64,000 bases of DNA, from positions 3,543,723-3,607,722 of the forward strand of contig CAJINV010000001.1 in assembly GCA_905178155.1 (NCBI GenBank). The letters run 5' to 3'. Of the stretch, positions 15,376 through 63,344 are shown piece by piece. The position numbers and the translations under genes were made by a program. The notes under the pieces were generated by a model. The model ran no database searches. It was not told where the DNA came from and was given only the letters and a program-made list of their open reading frames with translations. Source of the stretch: Amoebophrya sp. A120 (lineage: Eukaryota > Protista > Dinoflagellata). The first letter of the stretch is position 1; each line of letters starts with the position of its first letter.

Positions 15376-18300
15376 GTGGAAGGAAAGCTGTTCTACTCTC
15401 GCGGTGAAAGGACCACAAGGGAAGCAATGTGCGGCTTCGCCAGCCGAAGGGTGCTTGCGCGCGCCCTCTATGCCGCAGTGTTGCACTGGAGCGAGCGCGG
15501 GGATTTTGTCTTCGGATTCAACCTCCTGAATAGTCACGGACCGAATAGACGAAGACCGGAGGAGGGAAATAAAGCTAGCGCCGCGAGGGATAACAATATT
15601 CGCGTCGGACAGAAGAGGAGCGCGAGCCTAGGCAGCAAAGATTCGCTCACAAGTGCTAGTACTGTTAAAGTGAAAGCTACAGATGAAGACGACATACCAT
15701 CATATTATGCGTCTGGTGAAGCTGCAACAAGTAGCGTCACAGAGGTCGTCGCAAGAGCTGATGCGGATGAACCCGAACTACGGGCGGGAACCCGTCGGTA
15801 CACGCCACCCAGGCACGAGGATTTTCAAAATTTTCCGAACTCGGAGGAAGATGTCGAAGACGAGGCATTTATCAACTTGTTATCGTCGGACGATGAAATG
15901 GAGGCGATTCACGGACGAGATACATCAACACCACCCGACCGCAGCGGCACAAGCACATGGAAAACAACACTGCTCCCACCTCACGAGGACGAAATCGACA
16001 GCAACAATTCTCATGATGCGGACAGCAGCAGGAGCAGCAGGCCGGTCGGAGCTGCTGCAAAAATAGACCGTGGAGGAGGACGAAGACCAACGACGAGCAG
16101 GCACGCACGGTCAACATCTTCCTCGCGTCGACCTAGTGTAGTGCTATTAGAGACAGAAGGAAAGATGACCACGTCGACCCAGAGAACAGATGATCTCCCT
16201 AATAATCACCAGGATGGAGGAGGACGCACCTCCACGTTGATCACCACGAAGACCATGAACGTTCTGTGTATGGCGGTGTTGTTCACCATCCTGCCGTGCT
16301 TGGTGTTCATCCTGATCATGTGCGTGGATACGGAGCGCATCTCCGTGAAGGAGACCGAGAAGCTGTTTGGCACGGTGTGCCCCGGGTTCGAGGCCTTCAC
16401 CGACAGCACGCAACGGTTCACGTTCGCGGACCAAAACACGCAAACCACCACGACGAAGGCCGAGGAGGCGGCACGGCACATCATTTGCTCCGACGCGGAC
16501 GGCGAGCCCCTGTGCTACGCGCTGGTGAACTTCCAACAGGGTGCCCTGGTCGCGCTGGTCGAGGATTTCCTGGACGAGTTTGGCGGCGACGGGGCGGACC
16601 CGGACGCCATAGACACCGGCATGTTGTTCGACCGAATCGACGCCTACCTGGACGAGGGGGTGGGCACCGGGCACGGGCCCGCCGCGCCGGAGATGACGCC
16701 GGCGGAAAAAGAGAAGATGAAGAAGACGTTTTTCGGGCGGAAAAACCCGAAGGGTCGGCAGGGTGCAGCCGCAGCGAAGGACCAGCAAGCCGCGCAGCTC
16801 GTCGGCAGCATCCGACGCAGTCTCGACAAGATGGCCGCGGAAGGCAAGAAGAGCGGCATGCGCGTGGAGAAGTCCGGGGTTCTTCGCTCCGAAAAGAGCG
16901 GAGTCATGCATGGCGGGCTCCTGCTTCCGGGGGACCAACAAAGGGGCGGAAGCAGACATGTGAATTTTGCAAGTAGCAACAAAACGATCAACCAGACCCT
17001 GGCGCCAGAAAGAATGAATGCGTCCGCGGCGTCGAAGAACTCGAAAAATAGTCTTCAGATCAATCCTAACATCCCACCGGGCGCGGGCGGCGGACAAATC
17101 TTTCGCATAACGCACGACGAGGATAACGAACGCGCGACCGAGGGTCACTTTGGTCGCGGGGAGGAAGACGAGGCGGACCCCCTGGCCGCTGACGACCCCC
17201 TGGCGGAAGGGGAAGGCGAGTCTACTCGTAGTTTAGCGCTGCTTTCTGGCATTGATGAGGACCACGCCAGCGACGGAGAATCTTTCACGAGCGAGATCGA
17301 AGAGCTCATTGACGAGGCAGAAGAGCTGCCGATTGCGTTGGCTCTGCAACAGGAGTTTCAGGGATCTTCACGAGAAGCCACGACCCCTGCGTCCTCGGGC
17401 AGAGGTACAACAACTCCCCGGCGGGACCACCGGCGGGCCGAAGGCAGCGCGACAAAGACGTATGGGCGAAATTCTACGCAGGAATTTTTACTGTTGTCAG
17501 CTTCGGGAGATCCTGCCACGTTCCCGCCGGACGGCCTCACTCCAGCTGCGAGAGGCGGTGCGCACATGACTGATCTATCCGCAGGCGCCCGCGAACGGGG
17601 GAAGGCGAACTTCCGACGCATTGTGCGGAAGCTGATCGCCATTCAGCAGGGCGATTTTGCGCAGCTTAGTTGGCGTGACGTGGCTCTCCACGGCCGGGGT
17701 GCGCTTGGGGAGTCGATTCTGCACATCTGCCTGTTCCTGAACACGCCCGCCCACCGCGTGCTGGTGCACTACCTGGTGGTGAAACTCGGACACCGCGTAT
17801 GCTGGCAACGCGAGTTCCAGGCCACCACCCTGCGGGAAAAGAAGGACGACGACCCGAACGACTTAGAATACCGCAAGGGAACCGAGAAGGATGAGCAGGG
17901 CCACGCGTCGCCGGAAGATTCCGGCCTCTACGGGTCCCTGCACAAAGGCAAACGCGCGGGGAAGCGGAAGCGCCCCCCCGCCCAACCGCGGCCGGAGGGG
18001 GAGCAGCTCCCCGGGGCGAACCCGCTGGTGCTGGCGGAGGGCGAAAAATCGGGCCGGGGAAGACCTCGGATCGAGGAAGGAGCAGCTGAGGACAACAACG
18101 AGGCGCAAATTCCGACGCGGGATCTGGCGAGTGGCCAGGATGTGGGGAACGTGAAAAAGCGTGCCATTGCGTACGTGAGCGCGGCCTACACGGTGCGCGC
18201 CTACCGGGGGGAGACCGCGCTGCACATCGCCATCATGAACGACGACCTGCTGTCGGTCGAGCTGCTGATCGACCACGGGGCGGACCTCACCGCGCAGGTG

Positions 18301-20595
18301 ACCGGGTCGTTTTTCACGGGCCGGCTGTACAGCGGGGCGCTGCCGCTGTCGTGCGCCGCGGTGCACGCGAGCACGGAGATGGCGGTGCTGCTGATCGCCC
18401 GGAATGCCAACCCGCTGCTGGGGGACGTGTACGGCAACACGTTCCTGCACATCGCGGTGCTGCACGGCCGCGAGGACCACTGCCGGTCCTTCCACGAGTT
18501 CTTCCCCGACCTGTTTCACCGGTCCATGCGATCGCGCAACGGCTCGGCCCTCACGCCGCTGGCGCTCTCCGTGTGCACGGGGCAGGCGTCGCTCTTTTCG
18601 GTCTTGTTGGAATTAGACAGTGAAATCGTCTGGTCCTACGGGCCCATGACCTGCCGAAAAATCCCTCTGCTCGTGCTGGACTCCCTGCTCGCCAAGCAGG
18701 TGCCCAACGAGGCAAATTTCGAGGATTTCGAAGAGGTGGACTACAACGAACACGACGGCGCCCTCGTCCCCGGCTCCGTGCGGACCACAGCGGCTTCGCA
18801 GGCCGTCTCCGCGGCGAAGGGACAAAGGATTGGGGGCGAGGACACGTTAACCGCTTCGGAGGACGAGCTGGAGGTGAGCTTTTCGCTCTTCAAAAAGAAA
18901 AAGAAAAAAACCACCGCCGCGGAACAACAACAAGCCGGCGATGCCAAGAACAAGGTGAAGGACAACTTCGGAGGCGTGGCGGTTACGACGGCAGCGAAGA
19001 GCTTGGCGCCGGTGAAAGACTACGGCGGCAAGGGGAAGCAACGGGACTCCGTCGTGGAGACGGTTCTGCGGTTCCGGAAAAAGCCCATGCTGTCCGCGTT
19101 GGAGATCTTGTCGACACTGCGGCTCTCGTCGCTGTGCGGCACGCCCATCATCGTCGAGCTGCAGATGGGTAAGTGGGACCAGTACGCGCGGAAGCTGAAC
19201 TACGCGTACCTGTTTGTGGACCTGATCATTTTATTCCTGCTGGTTCTCAGCCTGTCCCACGTGGTGCCCGCGGCGGTGTCGCTCTTTACGCTGATCGGGT
19301 TCGCCGTGCTCGAGATATCGGTGCAGATGCACTTTCGGGGGTGGAAGAAAATGATTCGGTCCTACCCTACCTCCGGGCTCGTAGCCAAGTTCGTGTTCTC
19401 CGCGCTGCTGACCGTAGGGTACGTGTTGGAGCTGGTGGGGGGGGATGAGGAGAACGCGTACAAAGTGTCCACTAGCACCTACTTGTACGCGATTGCGTCC
19501 ATCATCGGGATGCTCAAGTTTATGGTGTACCTGCGCCCGTTCCGGCTGATCGGGCCCTTTATTGTGATCATCGAAAAGATTCTGGTACACGACTTCTTGA
19601 TCTTTATGGTCATCTACCTGGTATTCACGATTGGCTTCCTGGCGTACTTTATCGCTGTCATAACGCACGGCGGTCTCACACTCGCCGGAGGCGATAATAC
19701 CGCGCTTGGGTCGAGAGGATCTGGGTCCACAGGCCAGCACCTTGATTTTTCGAATGCGAGCAATGGAACTACAGCAGGAACATCAAGCGCGGCCGCGTCA
19801 GCACTAGTACAGTTGCAAGTCGATGAGGGGCGCGGAAGAAGAATTTCGGATAGTAATTTCCCCAGAATACATCCGGCGCCGTTTGACCATCTGTTGGGTG
19901 GGGGTGCACCGCATGAAGATCTTCTGGGCACGTCTAGTACATCAGACCCGACCACCCCCACACCGTCCGCGCACCCGTCGCTTCCCACCGGCCCGTTTGA
20001 GGTGTGGCACTTTCTGTTCGCTGCCAGTCTGGGGGAGCTCAGTGACCAGATTCACAACGCGGAGTGGCCGATCACCACCTTGATGTTGTACGAGTGTTAC
20101 GTGTTCCTTTCGGCGTTGCTGGCCATGCCCCTGCTGATTTCTATGATGTCGGATACTTACTCCCGTATCCGGGTGGACGCGCGCAACGAGTGGGTGCTCG
20201 AGCGGATAAAGACGATCCTGACCGTGGAACGGTCCGCCCTGGCAAACTTCCTGCCGCTCAGTAAGATGCGGCCCAAGCACCAGGAGCGGACGAACGACCT
20301 GGTGTTGAGCAACGGGCGACGGGTGGAGAACTGGGTCCTGCTCATGCAGGAGTTCAACGACCCGTATGCGAACGCTGCCGGACCGGTGATCGCCGAAGAC
20401 CCGATCACGCAGCAGCCGATCACGCAACCGCAGACCCAGCAGATTCAGATTCAAAATGGCCCGGACGCGTTCTCGTCGTTCAATCCGGCTGCCATGTCGA
20501 TGACGATGAACAGATTCACCAGGGCCTCGACCACCCACGTCGGCGGGGCTCCTGGAGCCGCGGCGAAGAGCTTCAGAAGCCACAAACTGGTCTGA
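15376..20595 (+). CDS. TRPV-like ankyrin-repeat cation channel
   Basis: Ankyrins GESILHI, GETALHIAI, LYSGALPLSCAA, GNTFLHIAV, LTPLALS. WSYGP linker. Six TM segments with S4-S5 IGPFIVIIEKILVHDFLIFMVIYLVF, S6 LLISMMSDTYSRI and a TRP-box-like EWVLER. First ATG at 15427; true start uncertain. Confidence 0.85.
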   Translation: MEGKLFYSRGERTTREAMCGFASRRVLARALYAAVLHWSERGDFVFGFNLLNSHGPNRRRPEEGNKASAARDNNIRVGQKRSASLGSKDSLTSASTVKVKATDEDDIPSYYASGEAATSSVTEVVARADADEPELRAGTRRYTPPRHEDFQNFPNSEEDVEDEAFINLLSSDDEMEAIHGRDTSTPPDRSGTSTWKTTLLPPHEDEIDSNNSHDADSSRSSRPVGAAAKIDRGGGRRPTTSRHARSTSSSRRPSVVLLETEGKMTTSTQRTDDLPNNHQDGGGRTSTLITTKTMNVLCMAVLFTILPCLVFILIMCVDTERISVKETEKLFGTVCPGFEAFTDSTQRFTFADQNTQTTTTKAEEAARHIICSDADGEPLCYALVNFQQGALVALVEDFLDEFGGDGADPDAIDTGMLFDRIDAYLDEGVGTGHGPAAPEMTPAEKEKMKKTFFGRKNPKGRQGAAAAKDQQAAQLVGSIRRSLDKMAAEGKKSGMRVEKSGVLRSEKSGVMHGGLLLPGDQQRGGSRHVNFASSNKTINQTLAPERMNASAASKNSKNSLQINPNIPPGAGGGQIFRITHDEDNERATEGHFGRGEEDEADPLAADDPLAEGEGESTRSLALLSGIDEDHASDGESFTSEIEELIDEAEELPIALALQQEFQGSSREATTPASSGRGTTTPRRDHRRAEGSATKTYGRNSTQEFLLLSASGDPATFPPDGLTPAARGGAHMTDLSAGARERGKANFRRIVRKLIAIQQGDFAQLSWRDVALHGRGALGESILHICLFLNTPAHRVLVHYLVVKLGHRVCWQREFQATTLREKKDDDPNDLEYRKGTEKDEQGHASPEDSGLYGSLHKGKRAGKRKRPPAQPRPEGEQLPGANPLVLAEGEKSGRGRPRIEEGAAEDNNEAQIPTRDLASGQDVGNVKKRAIAYVSAAYTVRAYRGETALHIAIMNDDLLSVELLIDHGADLTAQVTGSFFTGRLYSGALPLSCAAVHASTEMAVLLIARNANPLLGDVYGNTFLHIAVLHGREDHCRSFHEFFPDLFHRSMRSRNGSALTPLALSVCTGQASLFSVLLELDSEIVWSYGPMTCRKIPLLVLDSLLAKQVPNEANFEDFEEVDYNEHDGALVPGSVRTTAASQAVSAAKGQRIGGEDTLTASEDELEVSFSLFKKKKKKTTAAEQQQAGDAKNKVKDNFGGVAVTTAAKSLAPVKDYGGKGKQRDSVVETVLRFRKKPMLSALEILSTLRLSSLCGTPIIVELQMGKWDQYARKLNYAYLFVDLIILFLLVLSLSHVVPAAVSLFTLIGFAVLEISVQMHFRGWKKMIRSYPTSGLVAKFVFSALLTVGYVLELVGGDEENAYKVSTSTYLYAIASIIGMLKFMVYLRPFRLIGPFIVIIEKILVHDFLIFMVIYLVFTIGFLAYFIAVITHGGLTLAGGDNTALGSRGSGSTGQHLDFSNASNGTTAGTSSAAASALVQLQVDEGRGRRISDSNFPRIHPAPFDHLLGGGAPHEDLLGTSSTSDPTTPTPSAHPSLPTGPFEVWHFLFAASLGELSDQIHNAEWPITTLMLYECYVFLSALLAMPLLISMMSDTYSRIRVDARNEWVLERIKTILTVERSALANFLPLSKMRPKHQERTNDLVLSNGRRVENWVLLMQEFNDPYANAAGPVIAEDPITQQPITQPQTQQIQIQNGPDAFSSFNPAAMSMTMNRFTRASTTHVGGAPGAAAKSFRSHKLV

Positions 20596-21374: not shown

Positions 21375-22243
21375 GTGAAGACTATGGGCTGGTTTGGTAG
21401 CATCTTCGACGTTCTTTCAGGCCCAGCTAATCTTGACGATGGGCGCGACCACCATCAGGAGATTACGCGCTCAGGGGCCCCCGAGTTGGCGCACTTGCAC
21501 CAACAGCAGCTTCCGGGTGCCCGGTCGCGCAACTATCTGGGCAGCCGACGACATCAGCTTTTTTCGCAGGTACAATTGCGCAGTGGCACCAACATCAAGA
21601 CCTCGTTCGGCACGCAGGACGATTACTACTGGTACTTTTTTCCGGATAAAGATCGACAGTCGCTGCTCGAGCGTGTTCCGTTGTTCAGTGAGATTGACAA
21701 TCTCGGTTTCGTGCCGCAGAAGCTGGACTCCATCGCGCGGCAACAGGGTATGTTCAGCGATGGCGGAGAGTTCACGACGTGCTTCCGCCGTCCCCTGGCG
21801 CAGCGCCGCCCCGGCAAGGGCCAGCCGATGGTATATCCAAGCTTTCGGCAAGTGCACGCGGCCGGGTTCGAAACGGCTACGGGGAGCAAGTTGGTGCGGT
21901 ACCTACTGCCGTCCACAACCTATGCAAAGCTTCCCGGTGATCGAGACCGCGCCATCGGGGCCCGATTTAACCAGGGCACGGCGGATTCGCCGGACTGGAT
22001 CTGGTGTCTGTGGAACAATATGCATTGCAAAAGTATCGTACTACGTATAAATTGCATTACAAATTTTCCCAAGAAAAAAACTCAATTTGTCATGCTATTT
22101 CAGGTAGAAATTTGGATTTATCATGCATATCTGCAATTAGTACGAGTGCAATACTTTTGCACAGGATAAGCAAGGTGTACAAGGACGATGTCAAGACCTC
22201 AGACTTCATTCGGAAAGACACACCTGGGCTATGGATACTGTAA
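21375..22243 (+). CDS. Hypothetical protein interrupted by a TIR-bounded intron
   Basis: The ORF from 21375 joins the 22004..22243 frame when 22019-22173 is removed (CLWNKVYKDDVKTSDFIRKDTPGLWIL*). Confidence 0.5.
22019..22168. mobile_element. Introner/MITE-like element 1 (150 nt)
   Basis: Left end tatgcattgcaaaagtatcgtactacgtataaattgca vs reverse complement of right end tatcctgtgcaaaagtattgcactcgtactaattgca. Flanks aacaa/agcaa (5 bp, 1 mismatch). Confidence 0.6.
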
Positions 22244-23117: not shown

Positions 23118-25354
23118 ATGCCCGACAGGGCTTCCATAATGCCCGAGGACGAAGAGAACAACCCTGTAGTTGTAACTGCATCGGCGGAGCAAGGCGCAGG
23201 AGGCCTCTCACAATCGGAAATGGCGGAACAGGTGACCCCGGAGAAGCCCAAAGACGCAGGAGCCTCGACTTCCGCCCCGCCCGAGGATGCGGACCAAGCG
23301 CCGACGCCGCCGCGCCTGTATTGGCTGGATTGGTGCCGCACCCAGAGCGTGTGGAACGTGGTATGCGGCCATGTGTGGTGGACGATAAGTGACGAGACGG
23401 AGTTCGCGCAGAGTCAAAACGAGACGTACCGGTTTGCGGATTTGGGAAACAACAAGATTCCGAAGCCCGGCAAGGTGTTGACAAACAAGGTCACCGACCG
23501 GGTGTGGAAGAACAACGTGATGTTTAGCAATGTGTATATGACGTACACGAACAACGGGAGCGTCGCGCTCACCGAGTCCATGGCCCGCCAGCGCGAAAAC
23601 AGCAACATGTGGGAGTACGTCGTGGAGCAGGGCACGCTGCACACCATCCCGCTCTTTTTCCTACTGTCCGGCTACATCAGTGCGGCGGTTTCCGGGTTCA
23701 AGGGGCGGAACACAGTCGCTCCGGTCCTGGATCAGTACCTCGACAAAACGCCGGATAGTACCACAGGAGGAGCAGAATTTCCGAAACTCGAGAAGTACGT
23801 GGAAAAGCTGAGTTCGAAGGTGGGCGAAGACGCCTTCCACCACTTTTGCGCCCGCCGGTTCAAGCGGTTGATACTTCCGTTTATTTTCGGGTCCGTGTGC
23901 AGCGTGATCCCCCGGTCTCTGATGCGAGACGAATTCGGGGCGCTCACTGTGATCGAGTCAGAAATGTGGTTCTTGTACGCGCTCTGGGGCTTCGCGTGCG
24001 CCAACTACGCCTGGGGCCAGTACGCGCACTACTACAAGGCGTTATTCGAAATGGACTACGTGAAAGCCGGACAGAGGTGCATACTGGGCGAGGGTACTTG
24101 ATTTTTGAAACCGCAACGTGAATTTGTTCCATTTTTTTTGCAACACTCTCCATGCTGGATCAGAGTTGTTCCAAAGGCTATTTTTGAGAACTTTGATGTT
24201 CATAGAGCAGGTGGCTATGGAAAAAGAAATAAAAACCTAATTATGCATTGCAGTTGCCGCTCCGGCCTCCGATGCTTTCAAAGAGCAGCGTGGAATGGTG
24301 CAAAAGTGGTGCTTGATCTACGGCGTCGTGGCGCAGCTGGTGAACTGGGTGATTCCGGTGGTCGCAAACGTGGTCTTTAATTCGGACGGCATGAAGACCT
24401 GGTGGTGGTTGACGCTGGGCGTCACCTGCCTGATAACCATGGTCCTGCAGTTCTTTGCGCTCTTCATGCTTTCCGGATCGCAGAAGGGTATGCACCTGCT
24501 CGCGACGCAGTGCGTCGTGCTGTTTTCCATCGTGATGTTTATCCCGATGACCTTCGTGCTGGCGGCACCGCGCCTGAAGGAAGACGCCGAGTCGGACTTT
24601 TTGAGCGTGAACATGTGGTTCGTCATGATGCTGTTTGAGATGCTGTACATGTTCGGCTACTTCCTCGCCCTCTTCCAGTCGCACCTGTCCCACGTGCGGC
24701 GAATGCTGCTGCCGAACCACACCTTTGGCGTCGTTATCCTGCTTTTGTCGGCCATATGGCCGGTCGCCACCTTCTGGGGGGCGCGGTCGGCACGACGGGT
24801 CGGGCCGTTTCTGACCTTCTACGACGACCAACAAAGACTCCTTGGACTGCTCAGGAGCTGGCTCTGGATGGCCGTGCTCGCAGGTAAGTAGTTAATATGC
24901 TGGTTAGGTGGAAGGATAAGTTTGTTGCATTGATCTGTTTCGGTTACCATCTGTGAATGCTTTTTTCCAGTGATTTTAGTCTTTCTTTCGCCGTAGTTCG
25001 TTGTGGAATAGTGATATACGCATGGGTCATGTGGTCGTGATTGCGCGGCAAATTTAGCGGACCGAAAATATCCAAAACAAAACAAAACGACCAGCCTTCG
25101 CCTACTATTTCGCAAACGGGACGGTGACACCTGCGGTCCACAAACACATCACGCAGAGTGCAATGGTGGTGTACGTTTTTCACCGGTTCGCTGAGGAGCT
25201 GTGGTTGCGGGCCCTGCTGGAAAAGGACAGCAATCGGGACGAGATTGCCGCTAGCACGATAGTGCTGGTGCTGCTCAGCTGCATGGGGTTATACGCGATC
25301 TTACAATCCAATTGGGTCACCCGACTGATGTTCGGATTAACCAAAATCGCCTAG
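23118..25354 (+). CDS. Acyltransferase family 3 (OpgC/MdoC-like) multi-pass membrane protein
   Basis: RLYWLDWCR, IPLFFLLSGY, RRFKRLILPFIFG, MWFLYAL, VYVFH. Exons 23118-24093, 24254-24883, 25095-25354 (GT-AG, phase 1). Confidence 0.8.
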
Positions 25355-26059
25355 AGGGTTGCATTTCCTGTCTCTCGGTGATTTGCCCCTGGAGAACTGT
25401 CTCTACTAAAAACCTGCAAAGGTTTTTACGAGCGTTTTTTACAACATTATGCGCACTCGTTTTCCACACTACACTACTTATTACAACATTATCGCTTTAT
25501 TTTGTGGAGAAGTTTGAGTGTCACATCGATAAACAGATAATTTTGCTAGTTCATCCTACCCCCGCTCCACAGCGAGCTCCTTGTGTATTAAAGGTAAAGA
25601 CTCATGATCTCGACGCAGACTCTCATTGTAAAGATGGGTAGACTTCTGCCAACCACTTTATGTGACCGCTTGGTCAACATCCCATCTGCCGCACGGATTT
25701 CTAAATGACTCCCCATCCTGTATTTGGCTGTACTGTGCTACTGCCCCGCATCAGACGCAAAAATTGTTCGTGCATCTTCGGGAGGTATTCCCTTATACCC
25801 GTGGGCTTTGATGTCCGTGTTCGAGCCGGTGCAAAATGCCATTTGCAGGAGCTTTCGTTTTGTATAGTAAAGCAAAACAAGGAAAACTTTGATACTCGGC
25901 TTTGGATTTCTTTCGTTAGACAGGTTTCTTGGCTCGCTACAGGAAGAGGAGACGAGTCAGCGATATTACCAGCATCAATTTTGCCGCGGCCTAGGCGTAA
26001 GGCATCGGAGATTGTTTTTTTCCGAAGACAAAACTAACGTGTCTTCAGTCGCCGAAATT

Positions 26060-29000
26060 ATGGAAAGTCGGCGACGATTGCTTCGGTGCAGCAGCACATT
26101 TACCTCGGTCCACATGTGGCAGCTCTCGTGCAGCTTGCGGTTCGTGGGAAAAAAACTTCGCATCATCTGTACTCTTTCTCACCTCCTGCTCCTCTGTCTG
26201 CTGTTTCTTCTCCATGCGGGTGAAGCTGCAGAAGGTAAAAAACCAAGCGCCGAAATAAAATACGGAAATGTGAAGCAGGTGTACGTGGTGATGAGCAGCC
26301 ATTTTGACGAGGGGTACACCGATTTTGCCGTGCCGGTTCTGAACCGGTACTTTCAAGAGTTTTTTCCCGCTGCGGTGAAAACGGTGGAGTTGCTGAAAAA
26401 ACGACACCCGAAAACGGAACACACTCGCAACCCACCACGGTTGGTCTACACCTTGGACGGACCTTGGCTCGCTAGCATGTACCTGCAGGACTGTGCCTTT
26501 TTGCAGAAAAAGGGCGTCATTCCGGGTTTAAGTTGTCCGACGGAAGCAGAGCAGTACCAGTTTCGCCAAGCGTTAAAAGACGGCGACATAGCCCTCACGG
26601 CTAGTCCCTTCAACGCGCAAGTGGAACATGGGAGCGGTTTTCTGTTCAGGTACGGATTAGAGCTCGTGCGGGGCTTGGCCGGTGAAGTCGGAATATCGCG
26701 CAGTCGTGGGCGCGTCACTTTCAGTCAGCGCGACGTGCCCTTCACGACCGTTGCTGCGCTGCCGATACTGCGCGAGTACGGTGTTCGTTTGGTCAGCATC
26801 GGCGAGAATATTTTTTCTTCGGTCCCGAAAATTCCGGCGCCAATTTTTCTCTGGAGAGAAAGGGAGCAGACGAAGAAATTACACGGCGGAGTGAAAGCTG
26901 AACAGGCTGGCCAAAAAAAATCCGACACGGACGAGAATGAGCAGGGATTCGTGACTATTTGGAACCGAAATTATGGGAACTTCGAGCTTCTTCCCTCCGG
27001 CAAATGGGAGTTCACGAGCGAGCCCTTCCTTCTGGCTGACACCGCCTTGGTGATCGCCTTCAAGAACGATAATCAAGGCCCTTTCAATGCGACCGAAGTG
27101 GAGCAAATTTTCGGTGCGTTACAAATCTTCTTCCCGACCGCAGCACGCCTGGAAAACGGGATCGTTTCGACCAGTTACGACACTTTTGCGGAAAAGATTT
27201 GGCCGCGCCGGCACTCGCTTCCCGTAGTTTCGCGAGAAATCGGGGACATCTGGCTTTATGGCGTGCAAAGTGACTTCTTGAAGTCTGCCAGCACACGAAT
27301 CGTGATGCGCGAGGCTGAGAAGTTCATTTGCGGGAAGACCTCGCAAACAACTTCTACAGAAACACAACCAGGTCTAGAATTCGATGACGACGGGGGCGAG
27401 GCAAAGTCGAAACACGACACCACGTCCTGTTTTGACCATTTCTATTTCAGTAAAAGAGTCGCCGACCTGCAAAAAAACGACCCCGCGCTCTGGCATTTCA
27501 TGCGGCTCTTCATTGGCAGCACCGAGCACACCTGGGGGCTAGCAGGTAACGCCCGGGTTGAGGCAGCGAACAAAACAAACTTGTGGAGCAATGCGGGTTT
27601 TGATAACGACCGGAAAAGCAACAAGACCTCTGTCTTCAACGAAGTGGACGCCGCCTACCTAGAACAGCGAAACTTGCACTTGTTCTGGCCGTTGCTGCGC
27701 ATTTTGAAACGGGACGCGCATCCACTGGGGGATATCCTTCTAGAGCGCCTACGAGCTGAGCTTGGGCTCTCCCTGGACGAAGATCTTCACGTCGGAAAAG
27801 GGGAAAGAACAAAGAGAACCGAAGACGCCAGCCAGCTTGGCGGGCCGTCAGGGGAACCACGCGCGAAGATGCTGCCGCCCGCAAAGGACATCTTGTTACG
27901 CGCGGACCTCAACGCGCATTTTTGGTCAGAAGTCACAGTTTCCACCCAATCTGGTGAACTACTACCCGCAGCCTTCTCGGTGTTGATTCCAGAAAGCGAA
28001 TTGTTAGCATCCGGCCACCTCGTACTTCGAAAAAACTTCAAAAAGACTTCAAAGATGAGTTCAGTGCGAGTTCAATACGAACGCCGACAAAATCCTATAT
28101 TTATCATAAAGTCACTTGACCTGTTGCAAAATCGAAGAGAGCCAGCGTTTCTGTCGAAAGTCAGCTGACTTTGCGTGGAGTTTGCAATAACTCAAATGAC
28201 TTTTTGCGGAATTTGCACCAAAAAAAGTCAATTGACTTTGTGCTAATTTCAAGAAAAGCCAAATGCCTTTTCCTGAATTCGGCTCATTTCACAGACAGGC
28301 AGCAAAAGTTTGAAGAATGTGCCCAATTTTTTTGCAGAAGTCAGTTGACTTTTCTGGGAATTAGCATAAAGTCAATTGACTTTTTTTGATGCAAATTCCG
28401 CACAAAGTCATTTGACCTTGCCTGGAAGTTGTCAAAAGTCAGGCGACCTGTGCCCTTTTTGAAGTCAACGGATTTGGGCAAATTATTGAACTCGGATTAA
28501 ACTCGTAATGAGCTCGCTTTTGAACTCGTGCTCCGGTCTTTTTGAAAACTCTAAAAGTACGAGGTGGTCCCGTGCTAAGAATTGCTGGTCTGTTTTGATT
28601 ACCACGGCGCGTTGCGCGGGGTGTTTCAACATCGGGCAACATCGACTGGACGACAGACAAGTACAGAAGGAAGCAAACAATACGAGCCAAAAATCTGCAC
28701 GAATTGTCCACCCGAACTTGAGCCGGGGTACAAAATTGGGCAATATGTTTACCAAGCGTTGAGTGCGGCAAACATGACACAGTTTGTCGAGGAATTCGGG
28801 ACCACCGACGCTTTTGATTTCAGCAAGCCCGGGCTAAAGAAGCATCAAGCAAATTACACAGAGTACTTGCCGCGCGTGCGGGAAGTGATTGTTTCCATCG
28901 ACAGAGGCGGGAGGGGTAGCACGAGCAAGGAAGCAGAAGACGAAAGTGGTGAAGAGGAAAATTATGGGACATCGACCACAAGAAAAAAGAATTCCATCAC

Positions 29001-29880
29001 GCTTGTTTTGGACTGGGCGGTCGACTGCAAGTTGACAATGTCACGACATTGTCTCAGAAGCGACGCGCCTCTTCCATTCGAGGAATACGGGGCGCCTCAG
29101 CAAGTCGTGACGCGTTTCGCAATTTCAATTCCTGAAAGGTTTGACAAGAAAGCGGATACGGCTGCGGAAAAAGCGCACATCAAACAAGACACGGCTGCCG
29201 AGATTAAGCTGGATGTGCTTCTGCAAGACAAAAGACCGACCCGCCTTCCCGAGGTTTCCTGGATTCTGTTCTCTGCGGGGGTTCCTACAGTGCAACAACA
29301 TGGTGCAAGCACATCACGCTGCCGGGGCCGAAAGTTAGGCCGCTACGTGGACCTGTGTGAAGGTGGAGCTGACGACAGTACTATTCCAGGCTCTTTTGCT
29401 CTTGCAAGTCCGCACCAGCACGGAGTTTACAGCGAAAGGCCAGAGAAACATCCCGCGATCGTCTGTGAAAGGACGACCGTAGAGCAGGCCGCCAGTTCTG
29501 ACACGACCTCCGCAAAAGTTAATAGCTACCACGCACTCGGCGTGTCTCCACTGCACACAACACTTGTAGTGTTGTGGGACAAGAAGAAGGAAACGGCATT
29601 ACTTCCGCCCGCTTTCCCGACCCCGTATAATCCACCCGAATGCTCGCCACGATTCGGCTTTGTCATTCACGACAATTTGTGGAACACAAATTATCCAGCC
29701 TGGTACCCGATCGGCGGCCCTTTTCGCGCAGATGAAAAAAGAGACCAAAACCTCCGCGCATCCTGGCAAATTTCAACGCAAATAATCCACGAGGCGGTCG
29801 GGGAAGATGCAGCAGTTCCTGCGGAACGAAAGCTGCTGCCCGACGGTAATATGGCGGACACCACGGCGGTCTTTGTGTAA
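26060..29880 (+). CDS. Secreted GH38-like / DUF5054-type glycoside hydrolase
   Basis: Hydrophobic leader LLLLCLLFLLHA; VYVVMSSHFDEGYTD, RDVP, DNQGP, EIGDIWLYGVQSD, EHTWG, KRPTRLPE, HDNLWNTNYPAWYP. Two exons join across 28004-28584 (PESEL|LVCFDY). Confidence 0.75.
28004..28578. mobile_element. Introner/foldback element 2 (575 nt)
   Basis: Direct repeat gaattg at 27998-28003 and 28579-28584. Ends ttagcatccggccacctcgtactt ... aagtacgaggtggtcccgtgctaa. Internal ~90-bp inverted arms. Confidence 0.85.
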
Positions 29881-30375
29881 GGGATATACTGAGATTAACT
29901 TTAACATCGCCAAAAGCATTTCGCGATTTTTCGTTCCATCTACAAATAAAAGTTTCGTTTCGGACGGATCCTATTATGTTTCCAATGGCGTTGTACAGCA
30001 TCGAGTTACAGGGTTGCGGACCTACAGGGCATTTTCTCTGCCTTCCAGCGTGCGTTTGAGTTAGCACGTATCATGGACATTGTTCCCCACTGATTATAGT
30101 TCTTGAGTATACGAGTGCAAGATGTTCTTGAGGGACACCAAAACATGTCAGTGCGGATTTTTAGCTGAGAATGAGTTTTGTGAGAGTTGTCGTTCAAATC
30201 TATCTCGTCGGAAAGTAGAGAGAACGACACAAACGGAAAAATAAGCGGGCTTACCTCATCAACGTGTCACGTTTCCTTTGTCTATACTAGACTTGCACTC
30301 TCAAGCTACTAGAACTTTAACCACTGGCTCCTTACTGCAAGAAGCAAACCAAAAGTTCAGATCGTGCCTGCAAAA

Positions 30376-31677
30376 ATGTCTTTCTTCAATTGCCGGATTT
30401 GCACCGGTTCGCTTTGGGGAGAGCCGATCAAGCAGCCAGAGCCGAAACCGCGAGCGGATTTGAACAAGGCAGCAAAAAAGCCCGGAAAAGCAAGTATAGG
30501 TCGCATGGTGTGACAAAGATTTAGTTTGTTTTTGATGTAGAGTTGGGCATCGTTTGCACGCAGGCATGAATTGGATCGCCGGTTATGGAGTGTTGCACAC
30601 AAATGTTCCACATCATTCTTACAGAATTCACAAAACGGGATGCGAACGAGATACAGGCAGATTTGGCGAAATGGATCGACTTCTTGCATCCGCGCGCGCT
30701 CTATCAAATGCAAAAATGTCTGGGTCTGGAAGAATGCAAGATTTGTCATGCATATTTCTCATGACCCATGATGCCTGTAATGCATGACCTAGCATCGCAG
30801 ACTTGTAGAGGGCTTCCTGATGCACCTTCCGCATGAGAAATGCCCTGCCCGTGTAGCACAAACTGCACCCCTCTTGCTGGTCATGTAATACAAATTTTTT
30901 TAGATTCCAAAAACAGCATGACAAGTTGCAATCTTCCAGACCCAGACATTTTTGCATTTGATACGCTCGACTTTTTCCCAGACCAGGAGGCTGTGAAGAA
31001 GGTAGGACTGCTGTATAGCAAGTTCGCATGAAGATGAAGCCGTGATAAAAAAAAAAAATGAATATGATAGACTCTTTATCAAGAATAAATCTTGGTCTTC
31101 AAGAAATTGCTGCAACAACTTTCAGGTTTTATCCGAAATCCTGAAGAACATCGACAAGAAGGATGATCCGATTTTGGGGAGCGACGAAAAATGCGTGATG
31201 TGGCACGGCGACTCGACGAAGGTTAACAACGACGGCGAGGAAAGCCAAGCAGTTGTGCGGATAGTCAAACCCGGTATCATTTTTTTGCGACGAGAGAGAA
31301 TGAAATTGAATCAATGCAACTTTCATGCGATAGAGGCTTACTGGTTGTGGTTTGCATGCTGCGTAGCGCACACACTTTCGTCCTTATTTGATTTCCTAGA
31401 GCACCAGACCGGCAAGCAAGGTTGTATCAAAAATTCGACAGGTGACACGCTCGAGAGTGTGACTTTCGTGAACCGCGTGCTGCCCTTCATCTTCGCGGAC
31501 GACGAGTCGTTTGAGGAGCTGATGCAATTGCCCAAGGAGCCCTTTGCCATGTGCTGCGGCAACCAGCTCTGCGTGAACATGTCCCACATCTCGTTCCAGA
31601 AGCGCCGCAACTCCAAGGTGGCCGAAGAAGCCGGAGAGCAGGGCGAGGGAACATCGTTCACCGCACAGGCGAAGTAG
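30376..31677 (+). CDS. His-Me finger (HNH / zinc-binding loop)-like protein, 5 exons
   Basis: Exons 30376-30507, 30657-30701, 30969-31001, 31126-31273, 31442-31677 give ...GRMADLAKWIDFLHPRALDFFPDQEAVKKVLSEILKNID...CVMWHG...FVNRVL...CCGNQLCVNMSHI. Confidence 0.7.
30702..30963. mobile_element. Introner/MITE element 3 (262 nt)
   Basis: Perfect 32-bp TIR tatcaaatgcaaaaatgtctgggtctggaaga (30702-30733 / 30932-30963), imperfect out to ~50 bp. Direct repeat cgctc at 30697-30701 and 30964-30968. Confidence 0.9.
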
Positions 31678-32514
31678 CTCGGCGAGGTAGTGCAGTTGTA
31701 AACCCGGAATTAGTTTTTTGTCATTGCCAGCCAAATAAGTTTTTCTTTTTTCTGAACTATCTGATTTTTTTGTTTCGCTTTTCTGAGTCTGCCTTTATAC
31801 GATGGATTCTTTCCGGCTTCGACCGATCCAGGTTGATACACTAAATGAGTTAAGAATTACAGTGCCTCCAGTTTCCTAGAACTTAAAATTATTTTCTCGA
31901 TGAAGTCGGCCACTTACTGTGTGTCAGTAGTCGCTTGACAGCTGTGCCTTCTTTTGCAGAGCCGCAACAGGCTTCCTTTTGTATTTGATTCTTGTGACAG
32001 CGGAGGCGGACATCAAGTTAGACTTAGAGCATCGCTATTTCAATATTTTGTACTTTTGCGACGTCTATACCTTTTTGCAAAGTATTAGATATGACATCTG
32101 ACGAGCAGAGCGAAATCGTTTCTGGCGCGCGATTCTCTTGCGAATAGTTTTCAGAGCTGCTTTCTTGTAGGGAATTGATACTAAATCGCTCGATTTATTT
32201 CCAGGGTTGAAATAAAAAACACTGAGCCGGAACTTAAGAACTTCTTCGGGCACATAATAGTCCGATATTTTGAGAGCTTCTTTTGAAACCAAAAAACATC
32301 AATGTCACTGATCTCCGCGGGAATTGCCGGCCTTTGTGTTGTTCGTCTGTAGTTTGTTATAGGTCGCAAAGAACCACGACTGTGGTCTCAGGCGTAAGGA
32401 CAGCAGGTTTCATCAAGACGAGAGCGAAAGACAACTCAAGGCGGTGGTATACTGTGCAGATGATATGCAGTTAGTGCTAGAGATGGTACCTCTACCGTGC
32501 AACAAGGACGTGAT

Positions 32515-34086
32515 ATGGCATTCAAGACACCCGGCGTTCTAGCTGCATCTTCGTCGCTGTTCATCAATGCCTATCTCGACCGACAGCGACCCCGCGATGG
32601 TGTCTGGAGCTTCTCGAACGGCCCAGAGCGACGGCGCATCAAGAGCCGTGCTTTGGTTGTGTGCGAACAGCGGCAGAAACAGATGGACTCGTCCTGGCGC
32701 AAGCAGGATTCCGGACTCGAGCCGAAGCCGCGCGTCCTGTTCCTCGTACGTGCGGTTTGTCCAACCCACGCACAATTGCGACGCATGCTTCAATGGCGCC
32801 AAGATTGCAAGACATGTACTGCACTAGATGTTGACTTTGTGTGCAGCGTTGATGTCACGCACAACCGGTTGTTTCGTGCGGCGCGAGCGGAGCGCTTGCG
32901 CGAGGATCCGATACAAGCAGAGTACTACAGACCAAAGCAAGCCGCGGCAGGCGGGTCAGGAAGTGAAAAACCAGCAGAAACTGCAAGTGATGTGAAAAAG
33001 CAGAATGGCGAGGAGAAGCCTCCTGTCGTGCTTCCTCCTCAGCATCAACTGCAGGGATTTCCCCATCAAGAAATCGCAAAAACCACAAAAGATCAAGAGG
33101 AAAAAAGTGGTCAAGACTCCGAAGACGAAGATCGAGATTTCACTACCGACATTCTTCCGAGCCACGCGCAGCTGCGGTGTGTGTTAGGGAAAGATTTGCA
33201 CGAGTACAACTGTATCGACATCGAATTTGGGACCTCGTACGGCCACGGCTGGACTGAGATGCGCCGGCACATTCACGGGTTTCAGGGCACGGTTCCAGGA
33301 CGCCGAGGCTGCTGTTCCTGGGCCTGGGGCATGCACAACGAGTGCGTCCTAGACGCGATTAGGTGGCGGGTGGGGGAGAAGGGCCGTGCGGGGAAGCTGG
33401 GTGGGGCGGTTCTGCCTGTTGCGCACCTCAGGGATTTAGCATCACCACGGACCTCCAACACGCAAGCTAAGTCTACCGCTAATCCTGGTACACGACCAGT
33501 GGAAGGTCTTTCGTTCCAAGAAGCAGCTACCAAACGCAGCACCACCGATCTGTCCGAAGCAGTACTCACGTATTACGACCAGATTTGGCTCTTCGAGGAG
33601 GACGTTGGCTGGTCGGGCGAAAACGTCGTGCGGGACTTGATTGAAAAGTACTACGAAGACCCATCGGATTTGCTCACCGCGTGGTACGAATACTACGAAG
33701 AGCAGACGCCGCCAAAGTGGTGCTGGCGCACCTCCCGGACCGCCGCGTTCACGCGCCGCACGGACGGTCTCCACCGCGGCCGGGCCTCGTCCTGCGAGCA
33801 CGTGCAGCGCTTCAGCAAACGCTTTCTGCAGGAACTGGCGGAGTGGGCGGCCGCCGGGGCCGTCGCGTGGAGCGAGATGAGTACGCCCACGGTGTGTCTG
33901 GCGGGCATGGAAAGGAAAGAGAAACCGCTGCTGTGTGGTCTCTTCGGGCACGACACCGTTGGAGAGGTTTTCAGCTGGGACGGGCGGTTGTCCGAAGCCG
34001 CCTGGAAAAACGTGGTCGAACGCGACGCGAAAAAGGGCTCCGGGTATGATGGCAAGGGGAAAATGTACCACGCGCTGAAGTGGTGA
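32515..34086 (+). CDS. DUF3405-like putative glycosyltransferase
   Basis: YDQIWLFEEDVGWSG, DLL, W.W, VQRFSKRFL, SE...PTVC and terminal MYHALKW resemble the DUF3405/GT-A-like pattern. Start uncertain. Confidence 0.5.
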   Translation: MAFKTPGVLAASSSLFINAYLDRQRPRDGVWSFSNGPERRRIKSRALVVCEQRQKQMDSSWRKQDSGLEPKPRVLFLVRAVCPTHAQLRRMLQWRQDCKTCTALDVDFVCSVDVTHNRLFRAARAERLREDPIQAEYYRPKQAAAGGSGSEKPAETASDVKKQNGEEKPPVVLPPQHQLQGFPHQEIAKTTKDQEEKSGQDSEDEDRDFTTDILPSHAQLRCVLGKDLHEYNCIDIEFGTSYGHGWTEMRRHIHGFQGTVPGRRGCCSWAWGMHNECVLDAIRWRVGEKGRAGKLGGAVLPVAHLRDLASPRTSNTQAKSTANPGTRPVEGLSFQEAATKRSTTDLSEAVLTYYDQIWLFEEDVGWSGENVVRDLIEKYYEDPSDLLTAWYEYYEEQTPPKWCWRTSRTAAFTRRTDGLHRGRASSCEHVQRFSKRFLQELAEWAAAGAVAWSEMSTPTVCLAGMERKEKPLLCGLFGHDTVGEVFSWDGRLSEAAWKNVVERDAKKGSGYDGKGKMYHALKW

Positions 34087-34370
34087 AAAAAACGACAACG
34101 TGCTAATGCGAAAGTGAAATATGCGCGCATAAAAAGTTGACAACCGGGATGCGATATTTATCACGGTTGTAAAAGAGCAACTCTGAGTAGTTTTCGCCTG
34201 AGGGGCAGTTACTAACTTCCTTGTCGGTCTTCACCAAACTGGACGAACCTTTGTTGCCACAAAATGGCGGTTTGTGTTGATTTGTTGTTGGAAGCGAAGT
34301 AGTTGGTCGAGACGCAGCTCGTTTATTAAATGCTGAGCGCGGATTTTCGTGTACGACTAAAAGAAAAAGA

Positions 34371-36745
34371 ATGTCTAAGTCATCTTCTGTCTCCTCCCAC
34401 AAGATGCAGGGGTTCCAGCCAAACGAGCGCGCAGCGGCTTCGCCGACGCCGCGAACGCAGTCGAACAGCGGCAACGACGGTCGACAGCTCAATGCGGGGG
34501 ATTCGTCAGTGGCGGACCCGTCAGGTAAAACCGGATCCGTGTTTCTTTTGCCGAATGCACAGAGAACGCACTCCTCGCGTGGGGCATTGCACCGGCTAAA
34601 TGAGAAAGGCATGACTAAATGCGCATGATCAACAAATACTACCAGGGTGTTCCAGTGGCAGTGAGCAAAGCGGGACATTGGAGTGCCCGGAAGAAAAACA
34701 GCATATGCGGTCGTTTTTGGCGCGCGCTTTACCACCGCAAACAAGTCGTGTAGACGTTGGCACGCTCGCAGCCCCCTCCGGTAAATTGATTCGGTGAGAA
34801 GCCCCGTTTTTGTTTGGGGACAGATGCTCATGTATGGATGTCGGTCCTCGTCAGGGGAATGTTTATTTCCCTTTTGGACGACCACGCACCACCCAAAACA
34901 GGTATCGTCGCTAGCACAGAGGACATTGACGCAACGCTTGCGAAAACAGTTAAAGCAGCCAAAAGCGCGGCCCAAACGGTAAAGGCGTTCGCGAGCAAGA
35001 AAGTAGAGCCCGAAAAAATTCACTGGGACGAACTGTCTGGCGAAATTGATCTCTCTGTCATTCCTTCCGCGAAAGACGGGACATTACCAGTGCAACTGCT
35101 AAAAATCGATCGCGCCACGAGTTCTGCCTCGTCCTCTTCAAATTCGAGTGCGATCACGAGGCAGGTCGCTGCCGGCGGCCTGTCCCTCCCTTCCGTCGGA
35201 GACGACTTGATGCTGAGTGAGCGAGACAGCACTCGTAGAAGCTCGGCTCCTTCAGCTGACGCCGAGAAAGCAAACACGACGAGAGGCTCCCGGCAAACAA
35301 GCAGCAGTGCGGCTCGCGTTGTTTCATCAAACGGGGATGCTATGTACTCCGTACACAGTTTCGCTTCCTTTGCCTCGGAGCAGCCAGGGCCGACGCTCAA
35401 GGAACAAACCGCGAGAATGAGGTTGCGACACGCGACCGCGTCAGCGGTGCGGAGCGCGGAGGAGGAATTAGGCAAAATCGGTCGACCAAGTACGAGCAAA
35501 ACCGCAACAGACATTCCGCCGGGCAGCAGCAGAAACGATGAGCCAGCGAGTAGCAGTACAAAAGAATTATCATCCGACTGTTTCGTTGAGTACGGCGGGA
35601 CGACAAGAAGTGCAGCTTCCCCGAGCCGCGATGCACTGCTGTGCCGCACCTCATCTTACGACCTGGGCCTCAACAACAGTTACGAGAACAATTTTAGCAC
35701 GGCCGGCTCGCTGTCACCGTTTCGGCGGGGCTTGTTATTCGAGACGCAGACCCCCACGCCCGACAGAGAAATCCAGGACGCCCAAGGACGGCTCGGCGGC
35801 GTGGCGTGCGGTTTGCGGGCCACCGCGCGGGCGTTGAGTTGGGACAGCATGTCGGACCACACCTACGTTTCGAGCTCCACGGACGTGTCCCCAGTTTTAA
35901 CGGAAAATTCGCCAAACAAGCGGTCGACAATCCACACGCAGAACCCCCTGGACGAAGCCCGACCCGTTCCCCTCAACCGAAACATGCGCCGAATTCACGC
36001 CGCGAACACGATCTCCGGCGACGTAGTGGCAGTCGCGCGGGGCAAGCACGACGGCCGTTGTAGTTTGCCGAACGGGACGGCGGCGGCGATCCCGTTGCGG
36101 GCCTTGCTTTCGCCGCGCCACCGTGCGCAGTTTGGGCCAGATGACTTCACGGAAACAACAGGAGAGCTGTTGGGCGACCAGAAAAGTATCTTAGCTGTTT
36201 GCGATCGGAGTGTTAAAGAGGAAATGTGTTTCTAGTTCGTTTGCCGAAACAGGCCGAGATGAAGATGCCCCCGTCTCGTGTCGAATTTCGATTTCAACTA
36301 TGTTTAGGAAGAAGTTTCAGTTTCGGTTTGAAATCTTTTACCGTGTTCGCATGCGCAAGAAAAAAAAAACGCAAAAAAAAAAAAAAACAGAAGCAGCGGA
36401 GGGCGTCGCACTTCTGCGACAACTGAAGAGCGGCCTCGGCAGCGGCACGGTGGGGCGGTGGGAGCCGCAACCTGTGGCGCCGATTGACGAACAAAGACAA
36501 ATGCGATTTCGGCGCCACGTGAAAGACGACGGCTCTAGGGATCGTGTGCGTTCCCCGAGCAGAGACTCAAAATCAGGATCGGTTTCCATCTCTCTGTCAT
36601 CCTGCTCAGGAAACTCCTCATCTGCAAAAGGTGAAAAGCAAGGACCGAAAAATGTTTCAGTGTAGTTTTTCTTGTGTTTCAGCCTGTATTCATAGAGATA
36701 GTTTCAGCCGCAGGACTGCCTGGACAAGCAGAAGAACTTGAGTGA
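34371..36745 (+). CDS. Ser-rich low-complexity hypothetical protein (multi-exon)
   Basis: Phase-1 GT-AG introns 34525-34901 and 36210-36390 link the ORFs. Last exon and stop are tentative. Confidence 0.45.
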
Positions 36746-47700: not shown

Positions 47701-49269
47701 AACAACGTGTTCAGCCAGTGCTGGGTGTACCTGCTGTTACTCGCCGTGTTCGCGCCGGTCTTGTTGATCTACTTCATGTGCAACTCGCCGATCCACGCCC
47801 TGCTCCGCACCAACGTGGACAACATGCACTCCTGGCAGCACGCGTCCATCACCGCCCCGGCGACCCGCGCCGTCGCGTTCTCCAACGCGGACGTGCTCAG
47901 TCCCAACTTTTGGTTCACCCGCCCGGACGCGTCGCTGTTCAGCGGGCAGGAGGACGTGTTCTCCTACGCTTTGAACACAGCGGAAAGCTTCCCGGACATC
48001 AGCACCCCAGCCCCGGTCCACTGGTCGTCCGGCAGTAGTAGAGTGGGCGCGGAAGCAGCAATGGAAAATGAACAAGGTGCCGAGAGTACGACAGCGGCTC
48101 GCAGCAGCAGAAAGGCCGCCGGCGCGCAGAGCACGCCGCCGCCGAGCGACGCGCGCGGGGAGGAACTGTTGCAAAGACAGGTCGACCAGGCGGACAAGTT
48201 CATGCACAACGAGATGAGCGCGGCGCTGACCGGGTGGCGGGCGAACTTGCTGACCAAGATGGACAAGGGCAGTGAGCAGACCGCCATGTCCGCCACCGAT
48301 TTTCGGGTTTTATTCCCCGCGGTCGGCGGCGGCGCCGCCACCCCCGCGAGCGCGGTGATGGTGGAAGTGAAGACGGATTTCATCACGCAGGACGCCACGG
48401 TGAAGCAGTGGGTGAAGAGCCTGCACGAGGCGAGTCAGGTCACCTTCGCGGACCTGCGGGTGTCGCGCCGCAACAAGGCGTTGGAGCCGCTGCCGGAGCC
48501 GCAGATGATTGCGGACATCGCCGCGCACGCGTGCCAGAAGATGTGCGCCGCGAGCTGGACCGCGGGCCGGGGCCAGAACGTGCCGGACCGCGAGCGGTTC
48601 TACTGCTGGTGGGTGGCCGTGTCCGCCGAGCGGTGCGTGCTGATGCCGCGCACGGACGTGGGCACCACCGTCGCCCTGGGCCCGGACTACTTCAACTACG
48701 TCTCCACGGAGCTGCTGCCGAAGCACAGCGGGGTTGGCGTGGACGCGATCTACAACACGCCGAATTTGAATGTGCAGGTGGTGGGAGGAGGTACCACTAC
48801 CAACAACGCCGGGGGGTCGTCTTTGGTCAACAACGTGGTTCTGTACCCATCGAAAGACGCCCAGGAGCCGTTCACCGCCTACCAGCTGAACCGGCACAAC
48901 GTGCTCTCCTGGCGGTCGCAGAACTACAAGAGCGAGGGCGGCTACGACGACTGGCTGCAAGAGGCGCTGCCCTCCTTTTACCCGCGCCAGGATTTCTACA
49001 TGCCCCGAAACGGCTTCACGGACGACCACTCACGGTGGTTCCCGGAGGTGTACGAAAATTACCCGGCCAGCTTTGTGCCCTCGTTTTCCATGGTGTTCGC
49101 CGGGTTCGTCGTCGTGCTATGCGCTACGATGGGCTTCCTCACCTGGCTGGTGCTCAAGTTCTGGGCAATAGGCTACGAGCCGCCGCACCGGGTGCACCAG
49201 TTCCACATGCGCGGCGCGCCGATGCCGCCCAGTCCGGACTCGAACACGTCTGGGTCCCCGCTGGAGTAA
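41717..49269 (+). CDS. P5-type (ATP13A-like) P-type ATPase, 4 exons
   Basis: ELVPGD, PCDCVLL, NEADLTGEPMPVTK, CLDKTGTIT, SKGS, MLTGDN, RMTPNGK, MCGDGGNDCGAL, ASIVAPFSS. Exons ~41717-41935, 42110-42597, 42762-43707, 43831-49269. Confidence 0.9.
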
Positions 49270-49891: not shown

Positions 49892-50063
49892 CATTGTAGC
49901 GAAATTGAATCACATTTACAACACATTGCAAGAGCCTGTGCTTGCATCTTCTAAAAATTCCTGATGTGACATGATCAGCAGCTCCTGGAGCTGCATGATC
50001 ATCTCGTGTTCGTACGGAAAAACAAATGGCAACTAGCAGCAAAGGCCTGGTTTCCTCATCGAG
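49892..50063 (+). repeat. Upstream copy of a degenerate direct repeat (partner 51791-51952)
   Basis: cattgtagcgaaattgaatcacatttac...gcaagagcctgtgcttgcatcttcta...ttcctgatg..catgatcagcagct...gtgttcgtac is shared with the downstream copy. Confidence 0.8.
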
Positions 50064-50287
50064 TGTGGTCAAAAAGCAAAACGTATTGTGGAGAGGCGAT
50101 GAAAATTAAGCAGGAGTGCAAGCGTGCCAATTATCAGGGTTGCATCAATCGCACGCAAGATACCGATAGAGCTATGTATTGGATCTATCATCATGTGATA
50201 CATAGAAGTGCGACTGCGAGCGCGGGAGAGAACAACGCACGGAGTGCGGTGTAGATCGACAGAGTAAAAAACGTCACCGGCACGACA

Positions 50288-51781: not shown

Positions 51782-51790
51782 TGCCTTGGG

Positions 51791-63165: not shown

Positions 63166-63344
63166 GTATATTTATTAGATGAAGTCTTGGTTGAGTCACC
63201 GTGCAAACGCAATAACAAGTGTCTTTTTCAGTACTGCTGGCGCTCTCAGCTGTTACTCTACGCGCACAAGAGATTGCATACAAGTCGGCAGGTTATGTCG
63301 CCACAGTGTGTCGATCAACGAGAATCAGGAAAGCGAGGGCCCGC

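Follow-up and report, generated by a model that had tools for sequence, protein, structure and literature searches.

Positions 28004–28578 of the analyzed DNA can be assigned, with an estimated probability of about 0.93, to an Amoebophrya introner: a palindromic element, likely a transposon, that sits in an exon and is removed from the transcript together with one copy of its flanking direct repeat, which restores the reading frame. The window, to which all coordinates refer, is a stretch of 64,000 nucleotides from the genome of Amoebophrya sp. A120, a marine parasite of dinoflagellates (GCA_905178155.1, contig CAJINV010000001.1, positions 3,543,723 to 3,607,722, forward strand). The element, its flanks and the coding parts of its host gene are as follows.

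26060..27997, + strand: coding part of exon 1, 646 codons from the ATG at 26060 (putative start), with a hydrophobic segment followed by a GH38-like N-terminal domain
27998..28578, + strand: removed segment of 581 nt, i.e. the element plus one repeat copy; joint 27997 to 28579 in runs X3 and X4
27998..28003, + strand: 5' copy of GAATTG, a 6-bp direct repeat and likely target-site duplication, which fits either side of the joint
28004..28578, no strand assigned: palindromic, non-coding element of 575 nt, bounded by the repeat; a copy in run X6 stops at 28004 and one in run X1 at 28578
28004..28027, + strand: core of the left terminal inverted repeat, starting TTAGCA and complementary to the right end at 20 of 24 positions
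28157..28419, no strand assigned: 16-nt near-palindromic sub-repeat in five dispersed copies (starts 28157, 28224, 28337, 28368 and 28404)
28192..28415, no strand assigned: inner arms 28192–28269 and 28338–28415, 78 nt each and 90% complementary, around a 68-nt centre
28555..28578, - strand: core of the right terminal inverted repeat, ending TGCTAA on the + strand (from sequence and pairing)
28579..28584, + strand: 3' copy of GAATTG, from the sequence
28579..29880, + strand: coding part of exon 2, 433 codons plus stop, with the C-terminal DUF5054-like part; RNA-type contigs continue to ~30015

A preliminary description of this DNA had placed a GAATTG-flanked element of 575 nt at 27998..28584, and its coordinates were correct. 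An exact 6-nt repeat around a given pair of ends is expected by chance in about 3 of 10,000 cases. Because copies with other flanks end at the same positions, the bounds of the element can be set at 28004–28578 and GAATTG can be regarded as the likely target duplication, the length of 6 bp resting on the single copy at this locus. The copies were found in contigs of the runs X1 and X6. The final 78 nt of the element, at 6 differences, form the end of an X1 contig of 24,223 nt, X1 contigs depart from the window sequence at 28578 (two contigs), 28582 (two) and 28572 (one), an X6 contig enters the element at 28004 from another flank, and one X6 contig bears a shorter, unspliced copy. The summed X1 depth over the four bins of the element was 3–8 times that of the flanks, a value that is not a copy number. 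The element thus belongs to a small repeated family. Within the window, the terminal 13-mer occurs exactly at the two ends of the element only; at 2 mismatches it gave 4 matches against 1.04 expected, and as many were obtained in 5 of 100 shuffles. The terminal patterns had 0 matches in each of two scans of one collection of metagenome contigs. A loose scan for a repeat plus hairpin yielded 291 matches compared to 190–208 in shuffled sequences and was uninformative, with the element absent among the matches listed.

The terminal inverted repeats contain a perfect 13-nt core. Aligned as an inverted repeat, the two halves of the element share 197 identities in 252 aligned columns, with a score of 145 versus −50.6 ± 12.2 in 200 shuffles. 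RNA folding of the intron, which had been proposed as a check, resulted in an end-to-end structure of −249.9 kcal/mol (z −18.8; 0 of 20 shuffles folded as well). In the predicted fold, ~151 of the 287 nt that make up the 5' half find a partner in the 3' half. The inverted repeat is thus real, and the earlier wording that "most" of the element is an imperfect palindrome was slightly generous. When the exon flanks were included in the fold, T28004 paired with A28578 (p 0.99) and the end pairing across 28004–28009 had p 0.99–1.0. In this fold G28003 lies unpaired opposite G28579, forming a G.G mismatch at the edge of the element, and the predicted pairing extends beyond it into both GAATTG copies (28001 with 28581, p 0.97). 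The GC content of the element is 40.5%, compared to ~53% in the exons, and its longest stop-free frame has 89 codons. The 16-nt sub-repeats do not form tandem arrays, of which the element has only two, built of 11-nt units in 2–3 copies; they could possibly serve as transposase binding sites. No transposase linked to the element was found, and the element is likely a non-autonomous DNA transposon of the terminal-inverted-repeat type.

Removal of the element from transcripts was assessed in contigs from 8 of 11 runs (X2, X10 and X11 were left out). Contigs of runs X3 and X4 join 27997 directly to 28579 and thus skip exactly 581 nt, with a 6-nt ambiguity in the placement of the joint. The bridging contig of X3 consists of 26769–27997 plus 28579–30015 and matches the window without a difference across 2,666 nt. 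Such contigs were present in two of the four RNA-type runs, all of which come from one sample (S2); in the other two, X5 and X6, none of the listed contigs crosses the joint, and one X5 contig begins exactly at 28579. The filled form is documented by the DNA-type run X1, in which one contig (24000–28032, 0 differences) passes through two canonical introns and enters the element, and a second contig (28551–30200, 0 differences) leaves it, so that both exon–element junctions are covered. X1 is possibly the source of the window, in which case it is not independent. No joined, element-free form occurs among the contigs listed for the DNA-type runs X1, X7 and X8. Contig-level data of this kind do not reveal rare junctions or splicing efficiency. 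In addition, X9, which comprises raw RNA reads from another sample, covered 4 of 30 bins, and the host gene was not among them.

The assignment of runs to RNA or DNA is an automated guess, with RNA on record for no run, and the two types derive from different samples. For the RNA type it is backed by joints at other introns of the window (listed below) and by a loose poly-A end at 32299. Since skips of GT-AG introns and of two hairpin introns of the TAT type occur in the X3 and X4 contigs too, we regard these contigs as spliced RNA.

22016–22170: TAT-type hairpin intron; joints in X3, X4 and X5 skip it
24094–34901: seven canonical introns of 121–211 nt, all seen as joints and all GTA...CAG, with 3' ends that are A-rich, not pyrimidine-rich
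30697–30963: TAT-type hairpin intron, direct repeat of 5 nt; joints in X3, X4 and X5 skip it; many related contigs
55852–56162: TAT-type element with a 5-nt repeat; its 311-nt removal would open a frame resembling WD40 repeats

The 581-nt removal creates an open frame of 1,079 aa from the ATG at 26060. The A120 protein GSA120T00012727001.1 (CAD7923738.1; 664 aa) is an exact substring of this product (residues 416–1079), and since it encodes the same junction, the public gene model already has the 581-nt intron. The preliminary description had proposed that removing 581 nt fuses ORFs of 759 and 432 aa. The fusion is indeed in frame, whereas the product has 1,079 aa and not the sum of both, because 56 codons of the 759-aa ORF lie within the element and the "starts" of both ORFs are TTG calls of the bacterial code. 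GSA120T00012727001.1 starts at 27305, and the GH38-like domain lies in the 415 residues upstream of it (26060–27304). The frame is open from the ATG at 26060 and the X3 contig reaches back to 26769, and it seems that the public model is missing the first 415 residues of the host protein.

The host protein, which has a hydrophobic segment at residues 33–51, is likely a glycosidase of the GH38-like type, as predicted from its relatives and from structure models, and the earlier description of the gene as a glycosidase gains support from the same data. Six proteins were retrieved with exon 1 as the query, GSA120T00012727001.1 at the top with 100% identity. The other five relatives, from ENA, JGI or Logan, share 28–29% identity, and the clusters matched in the ESM Atlas are mostly bacterial. 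Four relatives of 666–888 aa bear DUF5054, three of them with additional weak GH38 N-terminal matches (PF01074 and PF16477 in the relatives), and a profile built from these four matched both exons colinearly, with E 2e-49 for exon 1 and E 2e-12 (Z=1) for exon 2. The ESM Atlas comparison gave 0.94 to PF01074 (GH38-N) clusters, and in Foldseek searches with the exon 1 model (pLDDT 55.6, low confidence) GH38 alpha-mannosidases ranked best (E 2e-6, TM 0.36). Direct Pfam scans of both ORFs detected no family at E 0.01. Sequence searches of the PDB gave 0 matches at E ≤ 1 with the single protein and no meaningful match with the profile. Among proteins of 355–1162 aa, no ortholog lacking the element or stemming from other Amoebophrya strains was present, and a literature query for "DUF5054" retrieved nothing.

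The cut can slide by 0–6 nt, which results in seven registers (GA..AA, AA..AG, AT..GA, TT..AA, TG..AT, GT..TT and TT..TG) that mRNA alone cannot tell apart. None of the seven is GT-AG; the AA..AG register keeps an AG and the GT..TT register a GT, i.e. one canonical site each. If the GT at 28003–28004 and the AG at 28578–28579 were used together, 577 nt would be removed and a stop would follow residue 653, in agreement with the frameshift anticipated for this pair in the preliminary description; if the element were left unspliced, translation would stop after residue 702. The seven canonical introns all read GTA...CAG, and the candidate sites at the element read GTT and AAG. Element 30697–30963, whose removal RNA confirms, offers no GT and no AG in its 6 registers, so that both dinucleotides are dispensable in A120. 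No dinucleotide is common to the hairpin introns that RNA confirms in the window. The proposal of an intron with a non-canonical junction was thus borne out by the 581-nt skip in the X3 and X4 contigs and by the public A120 protein.

We took the three other elements mentioned in the preliminary description to be the inverted-repeat elements at 22016–22170, 30697–30963 and 55852–56162. As it had claimed, the element differs from these in its 6-bp repeat and its TTA ends, since they begin with TAT and their repeats measure 3, 5 and 5 nt, respectively. The value for 22016–22170 stems from the comparison of the three elements and becomes 5 nt if one mismatch is allowed. This 5-nt duplication (AACAA, AGCAA) carries its mismatch where it creates a 3' AG, and judged from the sequence, 22016–22170 may be on its way to acquiring a canonical acceptor. 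Nearly all of 143 X9 reads mapped to the right end of 30697–30963 with 90–95% identity, which hints that this family could be common to another strain. The frame opened by removing 55852–56162 presumably resembles CstF-50.

Elsewhere in the window, uninterrupted ORFs encode an ankyrin-repeat protein (15376–20595; 1,739 aa) and a P-type ATPase (44080–49269; PF00122; 1,729 aa), and a purine-rich 19-bp tandem array occupies 63300–64000, up to the window end. All identified genes lie on the + strand; same-strand gene clusters are expected in dinoflagellates. Diverged short direct repeats at 49917–50005 and 51820–51904, ~1.9 kb apart, flank a 497-aa ORF (50288–51781) for which Pfam gave no match, a small palindrome lies at 49968–50005, and the region 49917–51904 is possibly another mobile element.

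Insertion of the 28004–28578 element would have been catalyzed by a transposase acting in trans through a 6-bp staggered cut. The pre-mRNA would then form a long stem in which the two GAATTG copies come to lie opposite each other, and this stem, not GT/AG, would pick the cut sites. Excision is probably carried out by a relaxed U2-type spliceosome, with the stem replacing the recognition of the 5' site by U1. We favour the spliceosome because its proteins are nearly all retained in A120, as are U2, U4, U5 and U6, while U1 is described as undetected in the available text of the A120 genome paper (PMC7789003).

Excision outside the spliceosome, in which a structure-guided nuclease would cut across the stem, for example in the TT..AA register, in which 28001 is paired to 28581, and a ligase would join the exons, is a tenable though rather unlikely reading of the same data. 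The undetected U1 snRNA fits this reading as well, and the retained set of spliceosomal proteins and snRNAs speaks against it (PMC7789003). The lack of a common dinucleotide among the RNA-confirmed hairpin introns, the strong end pairing and the G.G mismatch at the element edge would suit a nuclease that recognizes structure, but the AA..AG and GT..TT registers would each retain one canonical site. A similar route is suspected for the nonconventional introns of euglenids, which leave as circles without lariats (PMC11282704), but the Euglena signature is missing in all seven registers at the element. Somewhat less likely still is the extended proposal that the TTA-ended family with its 6-bp duplication represents an uncatalogued A120 introner lineage and that its removal would bypass the spliceosome, with a nuclease guided by the stem and a ligase acting across the paired copies of the repeat.

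The skip could alternatively reflect DNA, namely an empty allele or a precise excision in the RNA sample, and not splicing. This is very unlikely, even though the RNA-type and DNA-type runs come from different samples and a joint lacking one repeat copy looks identical to an empty site. The bridging X3 contig has no difference from the window along its entire length, no joined form is listed for the DNA-type runs X1, X7 and X8, and the public model, which was built on the same assembly, has the intron. The X5 contig start at 28579 provides a weak hint in the same direction, as filled and spliced paths would coexist in one sample.

Conventional spliceosomal removal through a GT-AG or GC-AG pair that lies farther away but in frame, or the presence of two separate genes, is refuted as the main form and is extremely unlikely overall. 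Seven in-frame candidate pairs exist within a summed offset of 90 nt from the ends, such as the GC-AG pair 27996–28579 (584 nt), but none of the seven was seen as a joint; the sole joint across the element is that of 581 nt, which the public protein also has. The preliminary description had named separate transcripts and a distant in-frame GT-AG pair as outcomes that would overturn its interpretation, and neither was observed, as one contig spans both exons. Finally, there is practically no chance that the intron holds a microRNA precursor or another structured RNA gene, since all 10 matches to Rfam at E ≤ 1, most of which are to plant MIR families, score far below gathering (best 58.7 vs 211 bits), the shape of a long hairpin produces matches to such models, and the terminal repeats and dispersed copies indicate a transposon.

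As a single case the element is of minor weight, its junction being present in a public model and its class having been described in the A120 genome in 2021. Because it differs from its TAT-type neighbours in ends, repeat length and size and is nevertheless removed with equal precision, it supports the view that end pairing, not sequence, defines these introns. More than 60% of the A120 introns form a class whose excision chemistry the element can serve to probe, and an intron of 581 nt offers sufficient length to map lariats or circles. In the Amoebophrya literature on introns and splicing, as judged by titles and the openings of abstracts, no test of this chemistry was found. If removal without the spliceosome were true, alveolates would possess a second pathway of nuclear splicing, one that converged with that of euglenids, and any palindromic transposon could become a harmless intron regardless of its end sequence.

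The element resembles several known systems to different degrees. The "foldback-type" label of the preliminary description holds for its shape. Foldback elements such as Drosophila FB and Tetris, which mostly belong to the Mutator superfamily (PMC4079207), are likewise non-autonomous and have long inverted repeats, internal sub-repeats and a short non-coding middle. According to the available text of that study, they differ in their 8–10-bp duplications, whereas the element has a 6-bp duplication and is spliced out, and the label does not extend to the duplication length of Mutator-type foldbacks. A further difference may lie in the sub-repeats, which are tandem in foldbacks, as those of 16 nt in the element are dispersed. 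A 6-bp duplication is shared with the IS3EU DNA transposons, but their fungal families, as far as described in the available text, end in TAYGG..CCRTA (PMC12730594) and the element in TTAGC..GCTAA, which places it outside these families. The nonconventional introns of euglenids also have paired ends, non-canonical borders, junction repeats and a likely MITE origin (PMC12501133, PMC11282704). They belong to an unrelated lineage, and their signature N3CDG...CHG N5-6|R (PMC12501133) is the one missing in all seven registers.

The closest match is the introner class of Amoebophrya itself. Farhat et al. (2021; PMC7789003) reported 66,565 RNA-supported introns in A120, more than 60% of them non-canonical. 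They grouped 29,850 introner elements into 1,954 families; these elements have inverted repeats at their ends and direct repeats of 3–5 nt, and the same description of the class is given in PMC11453091. Typical ends start TAT in A120 and consist of TTA plus two purines in A25, and the legends of Figs S20–S21 cover direct repeats of 3–8 nt (PMC7789003, available text). The full A120-type end motif (TAT followed by 7 nt and at least three A) is present in two of the three other elements of the window, the third of which starts TAT. The 28004–28578 element lacks it, starting TTAGCA, and it also deviates from the A25-type motif, taken from its description and not from A25 sequences, since its TTA is followed by G and C, a single purine. 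As its ends fit neither strain's typical motif in full, its family may be uncatalogued, a minor point in view of the 1,954 families. Compared to typical A120 introners, it has a direct repeat of 6 nt instead of 3–5 nt, TTA instead of TAT ends, an intron of 581 nt instead of 240 nt on average, and pairing far beyond 8–20 nt (PMC7789003).

Among the 58 A120 families in the available part of dataset sd07 of Gozashti et al. (2025; PMC12130899), 3 are flagged as palindromic like the element, and ~19 (hand count) have a TIR call over at least 90% of the element length. By our reading of unlabelled columns, an automated 6-nt duplication is given for two of them, fam60 and fam293, which measure ~147 and 250–271 nt, respectively, compared to the 575 nt of the element. 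None of the 58 families, compared by listing and not by sequence, has a TIR element of 560–590 nt. The 13-mer of the element and the name of the host gene were not found in 12 of the 14 supplementary files of this study, in which cells of more than 400 characters were visible in part. With the introners described for A120 (PMC7789003), the element shares the host genome, an RNA-supported non-GT-AG intron, inverted repeats of at least 8–20 nt at its ends that form a hairpin, a direct repeat over the exon–intron borders, repeated copies, and the lack of an internal transposase. It is a member of this published class, and both the class and the junction were already known.
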